From Podarcis gaigeae (Eukaryota), in the NCBI GenBank assembly GCA_964106915.2, contig OZ066920.1: 64,000 nucleotides of DNA. One strand, given 5' to 3'. The first letter of the stretch is position 1; every line of letters begins with the position of its first letter. Below the pieces are notes generated by a model, which saw only the letters and a list, made by a program, of their open reading frames with translations, did not search any database and was not told the origin of the DNA. The position numbers and the translations under genes were made by a program. Shown here piece by piece: positions 10,841 through 56,125 of the stretch.

Positions 10841-13273
10841 CTGCTCACCAACCTCCTCTTTGGCATTGGTATCCCCACAGTTGCCATCCACAAGAACCAC
10901 CTGAGAGCTATCATTGCATAGCAAGTTTTCTGCCACCTGGATATGGGGTTTGGGGAAAGAGATCTGCTCTTTCCTCAACTCTGATGATAGGCAGAGTTGG
11001 TAGGAATAAGGTAAAGTTCCTTCTTCATAGTTTGGTGGAAATATGACCTGCGCCTTAGAAAAAGCATTAGGTTCGAAGCACTGGAATAATTTGGGATTTC
11101 CTGATTGTCGAAGTTTCATGACAATGACCAGTATCACCGTCAGGAGGAATAAAAATGAGATCAATGCCAAAGCCAGCACCAAGTAAAACTGGAGGTCAGA
11201 ATGATGCTCTGTGTCACTGGATTGTCTAGTCATTTCCGGAAGTGCCTCTTGGAAGTTCTCAGCAACCACGAGGTTGAGGACCACAGTAGCTGACAGCGGA
11301 GCCTTCCCATTGTCCTTCACCAAGATGACCAGCTTCTGTTTCACAGCATCTTTCTCCAGAAGGGCTCGTGACGTCCTGATCTCTCCCGTGTGGGTCCCAA
11401 TGGTGAAAAGGGCCGGCTCTGTGGCCTGCAGCACTTGGTAGGAGAGCCAGGCATTGTGCCCAGAGTCCGCGTCCACAGCCACCACTTTGGTCACTAGGTA
11501 GCCTGGCTCTGCCGAGTGAGGCACCATCTCAAACAAGGCAGAGCCCTCAACACCCGGGACAGGATACAGAACGCGAGGGCTGTTATCATTCTGGTCCAAA
11601 ATGTACACCCACACAGTGGCGTTGTTGCTGAGAGAGGGAGAGCCACCATCTTGGGCCTTCACTTGGATCTGAAACTCCCTGAATTGCTCATAGTCAAAGG
11701 AGCGCTGTGCATAGATAGTTCCCGTCTCAGAGTTGATGGAGACGTAAGAGGAGAGAGGCAGCTCCTGCATGTTGCTGTTGAGGATGGAGTAAGTGATACG
11801 TGAGTTGTGGTCCAGATCTGGGTCCGAGGCTTTGAGGGCAAAAATGGAGGCACCTGAGGGATTGTTTTCAGGCACAAAGGCACTGTAGGATGATTTTTCA
11901 AAGGCAGGGGGGTTGTCATTGATGTCTGAAATCTGCAGGGAGATGGTTTTGTTGGAGGAGAGAGGAGGGCTACCTTTGTCAGTGGCCGTGATTGTAATGT
12001 TGTATCCTGAGGCTTTTTCTCTGTCCAATGGACTATCTGTGAGAATTTTGTAATAATTGTTAGATGAGGATAAGATTTTAAATGGTACATTACCTTGTAG
12101 ATGGCATGAAATTTTTCCATTTTCTTCAGAATCTTTATCCTTTACATTGATAACAGCAATTACTGTCCCAGGAACAGAATCTTCAGGAATTGGACTAGAT
12201 AAGGAGGCAAGAATGACCTCTGGAGCATTGTCATTCTCATCTATAATCTTTATTTCAATTTTACAGTGAGCCACTAATCCTCCTCCATCTCTTGCTTTTA
12301 TTGCCATAGTGTACTTTTCTGTTTCCTCAAAATCAAGATTCTCTGTATTCATAATTATTCCATTTTGTGCATCTATCCTAAATTTCTTGTAGACTTTTTC
12401 TGGTACTTTACTGAAACTATAACTGATCTGACTATTTGGACCTTCGTCTCTATCAGAAGCTGCAATCTGAAGTATGGGAGACCCAGGAGGGGAATTTTCC
12501 CTCACACTGACCTCATAGACCTCTTGAGTGAAGACTGGTGGGTTGTCATTGGCATCTGTGACATTAATCCATATCTGGGCAGTCCCAGTTTTTCTGGGTT
12601 CACCCCCATCCAAGGCCATAAGGATCAACTGAAGCGAGTGCTCACTTTCCCGATCCAAAGGTTTTTGCAGGAGCAATTCTGCATATTTATGGCCATCCAG
12701 ACTATCTTGAACCTCCAACGTGAAAAAGTGATTTTGGCTTAACTGGTAGTCATGAAGGGAATTCTTCCCAATATCAGGATCTTCAGCTTTCCCAAGGAGA
12801 AATCTGGCACCTGGCAATGTGGATTCAATTATTTCAAGCCTTATATTGTCATCCAGGAAATGCGGTACATTGTCATTAATGTCCTGAATTGCTACACTTA
12901 CATGGAAAACATTTAATGGATTTTCAACTAAGGCTTCAAGATTAATGAAGCACTGTGTGCTCTCTCTGCACATTCCCTCACGGTCTATCCTCTCATTCAC
13001 ATACACATTTCCATTTTCTGCATTGATACTGAAATATGGTTTTTTACCTTCAGAAATGATATGCAGGTTTCTATTCCTCAGTTCTCTGGCATTCAGTCCC
13101 AAATCCTTGGCAAGATTTCCTACAAAGGACCCCTTTGCCATCTCCTCAGGGATGGAATAGTGAATTGACTCTGAGATCTCCCAGCAGAGGAAAAACAATA
13201 ATAGTAGAAGCAAAATGTGGCTTCTGAGTGCCCTGAAGCTTTCTCTAGGAATAACTTCCATCCTCATCTCCAT
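10841..13273 (-). CDS. Protocadherin gamma-B-like variable exon 2 (subfamily X)
   Basis: ORF 10715..13273; donor CAG|GTAAGC at 10841/10840; EC1 CRESTQC; gamma-B-type [14 protein letters not shown] and [15 protein letters not shown]. Confidence 0.95.
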
Positions 13274-31000: not shown

Positions 31001-31221
31001 CTTCAGTTTTATTTTCAATTCCTTTCCTAACAATTTCTACCATGGTTTTGTCACCGCTGATGACAAAATATGTGAAAAAAAGATTTCTTTGCACTTTCTT
31101 ACATGGGGTCTTACATTGAATTGCTGTTACTTTATTATTGATATCTACATTAGTATGGAAAACTCAAATTCACCGCACTCTTCCATTTCATTCATAATTA
31201 CTAGAAGTTAAACCATAACAA

Positions 31222-31580
31222 CAGGGACGCGGGTGACACTGTGGGTTAAACCACAGAGCCTAGGACTTGCCGATCAGAAGGTCGGTGGTTTGAATCCCCG
31301 CGACGGGGTGAGTTCCTGTTGCTCGGTCTCAGCTCCTGCCAACCTAGCAGTTTGAAAGCACGTCAAAGTGTAAGTAGATAAATAGGTACCGCTCCTGCGG
31401 GAAGGTAAACAGCGTTTCCGTGTGCTGCTATGGTTCGCCAGAAGTGGCTTAGTCCTGCTGGCCACATGACCCGGAAGCTTTATGCTAGCTCCCTTGGCCA
31501 GTAAAGTGAGATGAGCGCCGCAACCCCAGAGTCGGCCACGACTGGACCAAATGGTCAGGGGTCCCTTTACCTTTACCTTT
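31222..31580 (+). mobile_element. Sauria SINE, full length
   Basis: GGGACGCGGGTG.. head with pol III boxes, (ACCTTT)n tail, TSD TTAAACCATAACAA at 31208-31221 and 31579-31592. Confidence 0.92.
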
Positions 31581-31970
31581 AAACCATAACAAGATCAAGA
31601 CTCACCTGAACATAATTTTCAGCTACAGCATTGAAAATGCCCCTGCCATTGCAACTTGAAGGCTTGTAAAAAAAATTCTCTACATTCTGAACAGCAGGTT
31701 CTAGTAATATAATTTCATGTTTTTCTAGTTCTCTCATGTACTAAATCAGGTAGGTAAGAGGACGGCAAGCTAAAAATATTAGTTTTACTCAGTGCAATTT
31801 GTTTAGGCAAAGAGGTGCCTACTTTGTTCTCATATAATGGCAAAAGTGCCTACCTGAGAGGGGCCAGAACTGAGTGCTGGTGCATTCTGACAGAAAGACA
31901 GGATTGGTTTTATTCCTACAAGGAGCAAGCCTGGGCTGCCAACATCACAGTTTCTGAAAGCAAAGCTTAC

Positions 31971-34400
31971 CTGCTCACCAACCTCCTCTTTGGCATTGAC
32001 ATCCCCACAGTTGCCATCCACAAGAACCACCTGAGAGCTATCATTGCATAGCAAGTTTTCTGCCACCTGGATATGGGGTTTGGGGAAAGAGATCTGCTCT
32101 TTCCTCATATCTGACGATAGGCAGAGTTGGTAGGAATAAGGTAACGTTCCTTCTTCATAGTTTGGTGGAAATATGACCTGCGCCTTAGAAAAAGCATTAG
32201 GTTCGAAGCATTGGGATAATTTGGGATTTCCTGATTGTCGAAGTTTCATGACAATGACCAGTATCACCGTCAGGAGGAACAAAAATGAGATCAATGCCAA
32301 AGCCAGCACCAAGTAAAACTGGAGGTCAGAATGATGCTCTGTGTCACTGGATTGCCTAGTCATTTCTGGAAGTGCCTCTTGGAAGTTCTCAGCAACCACG
32401 AGGTTGAGAACCACAGTAGCTGAGCGTGGAGCCTTCCCATTGTCCTTCACCAAGATGACCAGCTTCTGTTTCACAGCATCTTTCTCCAGAAGGGCTCGTG
32501 ACGTCCTGATCTCTCCCGTGTGGGTCCCAATGGTGAAAAGGGCCGGCTCTGTGGCCTGCAGCACTTGGTAGGAGAGCCAGGCATTGTGCCCAGAGTCCGC
32601 GTCCACAGCCACCACTTTGGTCACTAGGTAGCCTGGCTCTGCCGAGTGAGGAACCATCTCAAACAAGGCAGAGCCCTCAGCGCCCGGGACAGGATAGAGA
32701 ACACGAGGGCTGTTATCGTTCTGATCTAAAATGTACACCCACACGGTGGCATTGTTGCTGAGAGAGGGAGAGCCACCATCTTGGGCCTTCACTTGGATCT
32801 GAAACTCCCTGAATTGCTCATAGTCAAAGGAGCGCTGTGCATAGATAGTTCCCATCTCAGAGTTGATGGAGACGTAAGAGGAGAGAGGCAGCTCCTCCAT
32901 GTTGCTGTTGAGGATGGAGTAAGTGATACGTGAGTTGCGGTCCAGGTCCGGGTCCGAGGCTTTGATGGAGAAAATGGAGGCACCTGAGGGATTGTTTTCT
33001 GGTACAAAGACACTGTAGGTTGGTTTTTCAAAGGCAGGGGGGTTGTCATTGATGTCTGAAATCTGCAGGGAGATGGTTTTGTTGGAGGAGAGAGGGGGGC
33101 TACCTTTGTCGGTGGCTGTGATTGTGATGTTGTATCCTGAGGCTTTTTCTCTGTCCAAAGGACTGTCTGTAAGGATTTTGTAGTAGTTCTTAGATACAGA
33201 CTCTATTTTAAATGGTACGTTACCTTGTAGATGGCATGTAATTTTTCCATTTTCTCCAGAATCTTTATCCTTTACGTTGATGAGAGCTATTACTGTTCCA
33301 GAAACAGAGTCTTCAGGAATTGGGCTAGATAAGGAGGCAAGAATGACCTCTGGAGCATTGTCATTCTCATCTATAATCTTGATATCAACATTACAATGAG
33401 CCACTAATCCACCTCCATCTCTTGCTTCAACGGTCATAGTGTACTTCTCTGTTTCCTCAAAGTCAAGAGCTTCCTTAATTGTAATTGTTCCACTTTGTGG
33501 ATCTAGTTCAAATATTTGGTGGGCTGTTTCTGGGATGTTATTAAAAATATAACTAATATGTGCATTTAGACCTTCATCCCTATCAGAGGCTTTTACTTGC
33601 AGTATTGGGGACCCCACGGGGGAATTTTCCCTCAGGCTAACTGTATAAACCTCTTGAGTGAAGACTGGTGGGTTGTCATTGGCATCTGTGACATTAATCC
33701 ATATCTGGGCAGTCCCAGTTTTTCTAGGTTCACCCCCATCCAGGGCCGTAAGGATCAACTGAAGGGAGTGATCACTTTCCCGATCCAAAGGTTTCTGCAA
33801 CATCAATTCTGCATATTTATGGCCATCTTCTCTCTGTCGAATCTCTACAGTGAAATAGTGATTTGAACCTAGCTGGTAATTTTGGAGAGAATTAATCCCA
33901 ATATCAGGATCTTGAGCTTTCCCAAGAAGAAATTTGGCACCTGGCAATGTGGATTCAATTATTTGAAGCCCAATATTGCCCTTTATGAATTGTGGGGCAT
34001 TATCATTAATGTCCTGAATTGCTACACTTACATGGAAAACATTCAATGGCTTTTCCACCACAGCTTCAAAATCAATAATGCAGTGTGTGCTCTCTCTACA
34101 CATTCCCTCACGATCTATCCTCTCATTCACATACAGGTTTCCATTTTCAGCATTGATAGTGAAATATGGCTTTTTACCTTCAGAAATGATATGCAGGTTT
34201 CTATTCCTCAGTTCTCTGGCATTTAGTCCCAGATCCTTGGCAAGATTTCCCACCAAAGATCCCTTTGCCATCTCCTCAGGGATGGAATAGTTAACCTCTT
34301 CCAAAACTGCTCCACAGAACAAAGATGAAAATATCAGAAGTGTTATATACCTTCCTCGTGTTTGAAAGCTCTCTCCAGGCAGGATTCCTCTTCTCTTCAT
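31971..34400 (-). CDS. Protocadherin gamma-B-like variable exon 5 (subfamily X)
   Basis: ORF 31830..34424 starts at a GTG; first ATG is 34400 ([11 protein letters not shown]). Donor CAG|GTAAGC at 31971/31970. Confidence 0.95.
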
Positions 34401-42500: not shown

Positions 42501-43033
42501 CTCATACAAGATCTTTATACGTAAATCTTCCAGAGAAGTCCAAAACACTCCAAAAGATCTACTATGAACAAATAGGAAGCATTCATGTTCTACACATTTT
42601 TCAGTTAACTCGAACCAGAACAGGATGAATAAACTATGTGAGTGAACGAAGTAAAAATCCACATATTTAACCTCTAGGAGGAACTAAAAAATAACTACTG
42701 TATATAATGATAGTGATATTTTAATAACCTACAGGAAGAAAATTACTAGAAGGAAGAACAGGATATAAATTCCATAATTCATGAAGACTCACCTGAATGT
42801 CATTTTCAGACTTAGCATTGAATTTGCCTCTGTCATTGCAATTTGTAGACTACTTGTAAAAAAAGTTTTCTACAGTCTGAACAGCTGGTGCTAGTAATAT
42901 AATTTGATTTTTTTTAGTTCTCTCATTTAGTAAATCAGGCAGTTAAGAGGAAGACAACTAAAAATACTAGTTTTGCTCATACAAGGAGCAAGGTTGTGGT
43001 GCCTACATCACAGTTTCTGAAAGCAAAGCTTAC

Positions 43034-55640: not shown

Positions 55641-56125
55641 TCACACAACTTCGTTTTATGAATCCTCCAGAGAAGCCACACACAGCCCAAAATAATACTA
55701 CAAATAAATAGGAAGCATTCACGTTTTATGCATTCTTCAGTTAAGCTGATCATAACAGGACAAATAAACTGTGCTTTGTGTGAGTGAAAAAGTACAAATC
55801 CTTATTTTTAATAGATGAGGGATATATAAATAACTATATATTTATGGTGACATGCTAATACCCCACAGGAAGATTGAACACTCAAGCTCTATGCATGCTT
55901 ACATTTCTTTTAATTCCTGAGATGAAGGCTCACTCTGCCATTATTGCATGCCTCAGAATTAATCCTTCGTCTAGCATTTCTATGTGTAGGGAAAGTTCTT
56001 CACAATCAGAACAACTGCTGTTAACACTGTAATTTTATTTTCCTGACCCCTTTATATAGTAAAATGAAATAAAAATATTAGTTTTATTCCTATAAGGTAA
56101 GGCCATTTCTGAAAGCAGAGCTTAC

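Follow-up and report, generated by a model that had tools for sequence, protein, structure and literature searches.

Does an optional coding segment lie between a protocadherin gamma-B variable exon and the constant exons in Podarcis gaigeae, or is the segment in question the remnant of a dead exon? The stretch of DNA that was analysed here, 64,000 nucleotides in length and hereafter called the window (G000:C16:86490001-86554000), lies within the protocadherin-gamma (Pcdh-gamma) cluster on the minus strand and contains ten variable exons; 200 kb on each side were also analysed. The three gamma constant exons are located beyond the window start, at downstream distances of approximately 36, 47, and 56 kb; the first of them, constant exon 1 (at about G000:C16:86453558), opens with QAQP in phase 0. 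The host of the segment is a gamma-B variable exon (exon 5) whose closest proteins, among those listed, are Podarcis models with 95%–98% identity over the C-terminal 171 amino acids; gamma-B models of Podarcis and Zootoca are the nearest listed proteins to this exon. In the promoter choice scheme, every variable exon is driven by a promoter of its own and joined by splicing to the constant exons (PMC7811963). A preliminary description of the locus proposed that 135 nt behind exon 5 could serve as an in-frame cassette encoding an optional second tail. We consider it highly probable that this stretch is instead a decayed gamma-B exon end, and that exon 5 splices straight to constant exon 1. The features on which this assessment rests are collected in Table 1.

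Table 1. Positions of the host exon, the relic copies, and the adjoining insertions in the window.
Feature	Coordinates	Strand	Remarks
Host gamma-B variable exon (exon 5)	31971..34400	-	Donor CAG/GTAAGC, ending at 31971
Relic 3' end of gamma-B variable exon (copy 1)	31594..31771	-	From nhmmer and upstream-block profile; includes 31740-31606
Upstream part of relic, inherited frame, SLPSSYLPDLVHE	31733..31771	-	Matches TLPYSY..E profile; holds candidate pyrimidine tract and AG (31742-31741)
A-run, one extra base versus copy 2	31719..31725	-	From alignments; splits inherited upstream frame from tail frame
Dispersed-repeat insertion, ~125 nt	31782..31914	-	Between host donor and relic; 8-nt near-duplicate flanks
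SINE-like insertion	31208..31591	-	15 nt after relic donor; 13-nt target-site duplication
Relic copy 2	42782..42979	-	Behind sister exon with donor 43034; AC for AG, 137 nt to donor, in-frame TAG
Relic copy 3	55923..56089	-	Behind sister exon with donor 56126; all three frames interrupted by stops, deletions present

The elements that suggested a cassette are all present as first described. A gap of 230 nt (31970-31741) separates the exon 5 donor from the 135-nt stretch (31740-31606), which comprises 45 stop-free codons between a candidate TAG acceptor, with pyrimidines at 13 of the 17 positions from -20 to -4, and a CAG/GTGAGT donor at 31606/31605. This donor is at least as close to the consensus as that of the host exon. 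A plausible branch point (CTAAT) places its A at 31779, 38 nt before the AG. Another AG at 31771-31770 is out of frame, as the preliminary description also held; its use would produce an exon of 164 nt that meets a stop at codon 8. When 189,544 non-exonic bases were searched under strict pseudo-exon criteria, copy 1 was the sole candidate (one of nine perfect donors), which, together with its homology to real tails, argues that copy 1 is not random intron. The relic is truncated and is without signal peptide, ectodomains, or transmembrane segment, as just 230 nt lie between it and the host donor and 125 nt of these are repeat insert.

Insertions have arisen on both sides of copy 1. The upstream repeat, flanked by the 8-mers at 31914-31907 and 31789-31782, is absent from the introns of the sister exons and has 40 scored genome matches of 370 candidates; it may be hAT/MITE-like. 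The downstream insertion, with target-site duplications at 31591-31579 and 31220-31208 and partial matches elsewhere in the window, is presumably a Sauria SINE. A non-Pcdh open frame of 623 codons is also present inside the cluster (L025:956-2824, minus strand), and an open frame of 1255 codons at G000:C16:86742459-86746223 (minus strand) bears what we take to be a resemblance to a LINE endonuclease/reverse transcriptase.

The origin of the stretch is most evident at the DNA level. In nhmmer searches of 464 kb, a DNA profile built from the ends of 25 real gamma-B exons (four training rows of which were shortened by a wrong automatic donor call) matched 31721-31597 at E=6e-6 with the donor in register. 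The same profile matched copy 2 at 42906-42784, and the next non-tail match stood at E=2.5. Reciprocally, a profile of the relics matched real gamma-B tails with a best E-value of 6e-8. The earlier suggestion of a left-over exon end is thereby supported, and the claimed likeness to real tails is clear in the DNA profile; for the 45-residue peptide alone it is weak, with tblastn giving E=0.11 in the window and blastp a best E of 0.007 against 120 homologues, the best matches falling on the tail.

Homology to real exons does not begin at the proposed acceptor but continues 30 nt upstream of the AG, one base out of the 45-codon frame. More specifically, the 39 nt at 31771-31733 score against the real-exon block profile within the top 5.2e-5 of 344,457 non-exonic 39-mers (shuffle p=1e-4), a significance for which a factor of ten or more should be allowed, as the register was picked by eye. 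By this alignment, the candidate acceptor appears to sit within old coding sequence, and the AG is absent in both sister copies; both points speak against the optional in-frame cassette that had been envisaged. In copy 1, the inherited upstream frame lies one base off the tail and reaches a stop at 31717-31715. The first seven cassette codons are probably read off the inherited frame, and the AG-to-donor distance most likely owes its being a multiple of three to one extra base. The match of the first residues ELEK to ELRK, quoted earlier in favor of the cassette, is probably accidental because these residues are read one base off the inherited frame. This homology upstream of the AG in another frame and the two further copies in the window go beyond the preliminary description. 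As to parentage, pairwise scores favor other gamma-B tails and a maximum likelihood tree places the relic outside the host clade, while an AU test does not reject a grouping with host-type tails (p=0.41). The relic may be what is left of a neighbouring exon that was deleted, or it may have been copied long ago from the tail of its host.

Exon 5 is one of four sister exons with a common tail (donors 10841, 31971, 43034, and 56126), and the relic is present behind three of them; none is detectable behind the donor at 10841. The three relic copies group together in a single clade (98/96), whose stem is long (0.43). Of 196 aligned bases, 166 are identical between copies 1 and 2, and copy 3 is 63%–64% identical to both. 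Each copy bears disabling changes, namely the one-base offset and stop in copy 1, two stops in copy 2, where the inherited upstream frame continues into the tail, and stops with deletions in copy 3, which also has AC for AG and an altered donor context. Acceptor, donor, and frame-preserving length occur together in copy 1 only. Both copies 2 and 3 read TTTAC at the acceptor position, and the AG is therefore most simply explained as a change private to copy 1. The caveat attached to the original proposal, that a plain relic is likelier, gains support from these broken sister copies. Copies 1 and 2 are 85% identical over the relic versus 73% in the other alignable intron blocks; gene conversion spreading from homogenised exon ends could explain this excess.

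The sister exons themselves have near-identical 3' ends, with 10–12 differences from exon 5 in 396 nt, although the whole proteins are only 82%–91% alike (by proxy). These comparisons suggest homogenisation of the 3' ends, although little gene conversion is reported for the anole (PMC2764143). Elsewhere in the window, a 215-nt block is 100% identical between 41245-41031 and 52916-52702, just upstream of two A-type variable exons, in introns that are otherwise approximately 70% identical. A recent conversion of a promoter or 5' region is a likely explanation of this block.

Splicing was considered through four contig sets, two of them presumed RNA (X1 and X3, RNA status guessed) and two DNA-sized, drawn from four of 24 listed runs, none of which is on record as RNA. 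In X3, a contig of 422 nt spans 31971-32366 and passes at 31971, through its loose end, into the sequence of constant exon 1. This contig differs at 5–7 sites from each of the four sister exons, and so it stands for the sister group and not for the splicing of exon 5 as such. Direct splicing to constant exon 1 is thus seen for a host exon of the sister type. Neither of the two RNA-like contig sets, which drop rare forms and are too insensitive to exclude inclusion, holds a joint into the relic; likewise, the zero cover of X1 and X3 over 31582-31805 was not counted as evidence of silence.

The cassette peptide is present in none of the 14 retrieved protein models with a sister-type tail, six of which join directly to QAQP while eight run into intron or elsewhere. 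The distance from LPYSY to QAQP is 54–59 residues in all 53 retrieved models that have both landmarks, and none approaches 103. Protein searches with the 45-mer, which constitute weak evidence, yielded no candidate among longer or similar-length proteins. A HMMER scan of 1.84 billion representatives returned two matches to tandem-repeat proteins without sign of Pcdh sequence, and these were rejected as spurious. One UniRef model of Podarcis muralis (P0028) runs into the relic, follows the inherited frame there, and terminates at the stop of that frame in copy 1. It is probably a prediction artefact; P0028 also appears chimeric between exon types.

Low-level use of the stretch is the likeliest of the alternatives. 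An accidental acceptor might be used in fewer than approximately 5% of exon 5 transcripts, adding 45 cytoplasmic residues in frame and immune to NMD, with no selected function. The size suits exon definition, and the perfect donor, the TAG with 13 of 17 pyrimidines, and the plausible branch point would all permit such leakage; contig data lose rare variants and are hence compatible with low inclusion. We nonetheless regard it as unlikely, given that neither RNA-like set holds a joint into the relic (a weak point), that the competing AG at 31770 leads to a stop, and that similar arrangements are commonplace. An in-frame YAG with at least 13 pyrimidines, 60–300 nt before the donor, occurs in 22 of 39 real variable exons (counted from automatic donor calls, at least one of which is misplaced). 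No report of the use of such internal AG-donor pairs, or of a cassette between Pcdh variable and constant exons, was found in literature listings and abstract openings that took in few subscription papers. Many of the 39 exons carry an in-frame YAG with a good pyrimidine tract 138–159 nt before the donor, and in gamma-B exons this shared YAG falls in the conserved LPYSYQ block. It may represent a candidate latent internal acceptor in variable exon ends.

It is considerably less probable that wall lizards have brought the end of a dead Pcdh exon back into use, as an optional in-frame exon supplying a second distal tail segment to one gamma-B isoform. Slighter still is the chance that the relic, recruited recently in this lizard lineage, is now a functional segment of this kind held by purifying selection. 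An argument for selection comes from a DNA contig of a close relative, organism D, the one independent close relative available, which keeps the AG, frame, and donor of copy 1. It shows no differences in the 135 nt versus 11 differences and one gap in 269 flanking nt (ten differences are listed by position, and the eleventh was placed outside the relic since otherwise it would be listed). The contrast between relic and flanks has a Fisher p of 0.019, which becomes 0.056 if clustered changes are counted as eight events. However, this is one pairwise comparison of close relatives, and 0 differences in 135 nt at 2% divergence has a probability of 0.065. The contig set of organism C is identical over 31582-31971 and was not counted as independent. 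P0028 from Podarcis muralis also implies the same AG-bearing codons and the same offset.

The pN/pS ratio of copies 1 and 2 is approximately 0.5 on 20 differences, with little power, and it might be read, together with identity to copy 2 above flank level, as a sign of constraint. Against such constraint, the differences are spread flatly over codon positions (7/6/7), both paralogs are broken, and no retrieved protein model carries the segment. The ratio itself says little because real tails give pN about equal to pS. When seven A-type gamma-B exons (from window 17628 to G000:C16 ~86607000) are pooled, their last 37 codons give pN 0.18 versus pS 0.19. Among paralogs, the distal variable tail may thus evolve close to neutrally or under mixed selection. 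By position, the segment would also hold distal tail only. In mouse gamma-A3, the last 39 variable residues can be removed with endolysosomal targeting kept (PMC3216661); by analogy, the same may apply to lizard gamma-B.

That the relic donor serves exon 5 as a second 5' splice site, lengthening it by 365 nt, is very improbable: its consensus match equals or betters that of the host donor, but read-through meets a stop at 31832-31830 to give a truncated NMD target, and no RNA-like contig bridges the intron.

The reading of copy 1 as a decayed exon end can be assembled into a simple history. A deletion or an old partial duplication would have left approximately 170 nt of an exon end just behind the donor of the ancestral host exon, after which host exon and relic would have been copied together by tandem duplication. 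A C-to-G change in copy 1 may then have created an AG within old coding sequence, and through an extra base in the A-run the distance from AG to donor may have become divisible by three. Donor and stop-free last 37 codons would have been inherited and not newly selected, and the relic would leave with the intron. The cassette look is probably accidental, given the alignments and the frequency of equally good in-frame AGs in real variable exons. Under promoter choice, we infer, downstream promoterless donors are routinely passed over; since transcripts already pass many of them, an extra relic donor needs no special silencing.

Pseudo-exons, or cryptic exons, are short intronic segments that have an open frame and whose ends look like an acceptor and a donor. 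Copy 1 resembles them in being intronic, in both ends, and in its open frame. Unlike transposon-derived pseudo-exons, its source is an old coding exon end, and its inclusion is a candidate event only. Wu et al. 2001 reportedly used the word relic for degenerate variable-exon fragments in mammalian Pcdh clusters. The term also appears in the figure legends of a Ugt cluster paper (PMC2819257). In the anole, the cluster holds 14 pseudogenes, decayed to various degrees and half of them with single-base indels, beside 71 intact variable exons (PMC2764143). Like such clustered Pcdh pseudogenes, copy 1 is a fragment of a variable exon that is truncated, carries indels, has no promoter, and lies among the intact exons of a birth-and-death array. 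It differs from them in keeping just the last ~170 nt, very close behind an intact donor, in having been triplicated with its host, and in that one copy has a chance in-frame AG. Its donor is in phase 0 and inherited, as in Pcdh-gamma variable-to-constant splicing, where exons of the host type are joined straight to constant exon 1. Contrarily, the relic has none of the promoter, ectodomains, and transmembrane segment of the units in the promoter-choice scheme, which as described holds no internal cassettes (PMC7811963).

If re-recruitment were true, two single-base changes in a pseudogene relic would have given rise to splicing diversity beyond that of promoter choice. Real inclusion would represent a datable birth of an exon out of a dead paralog, and the Pcdh-gamma scheme would gain alternative splicing of an internal kind, although only one of dozens of isoforms would be altered by its product, in a part of the tail that evolves fast. 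As an ordinary relic, the stretch would be a further trace of gene birth and death in the reptile Pcdh cluster, and it would help to mark how one gamma-B unit was triplicated.
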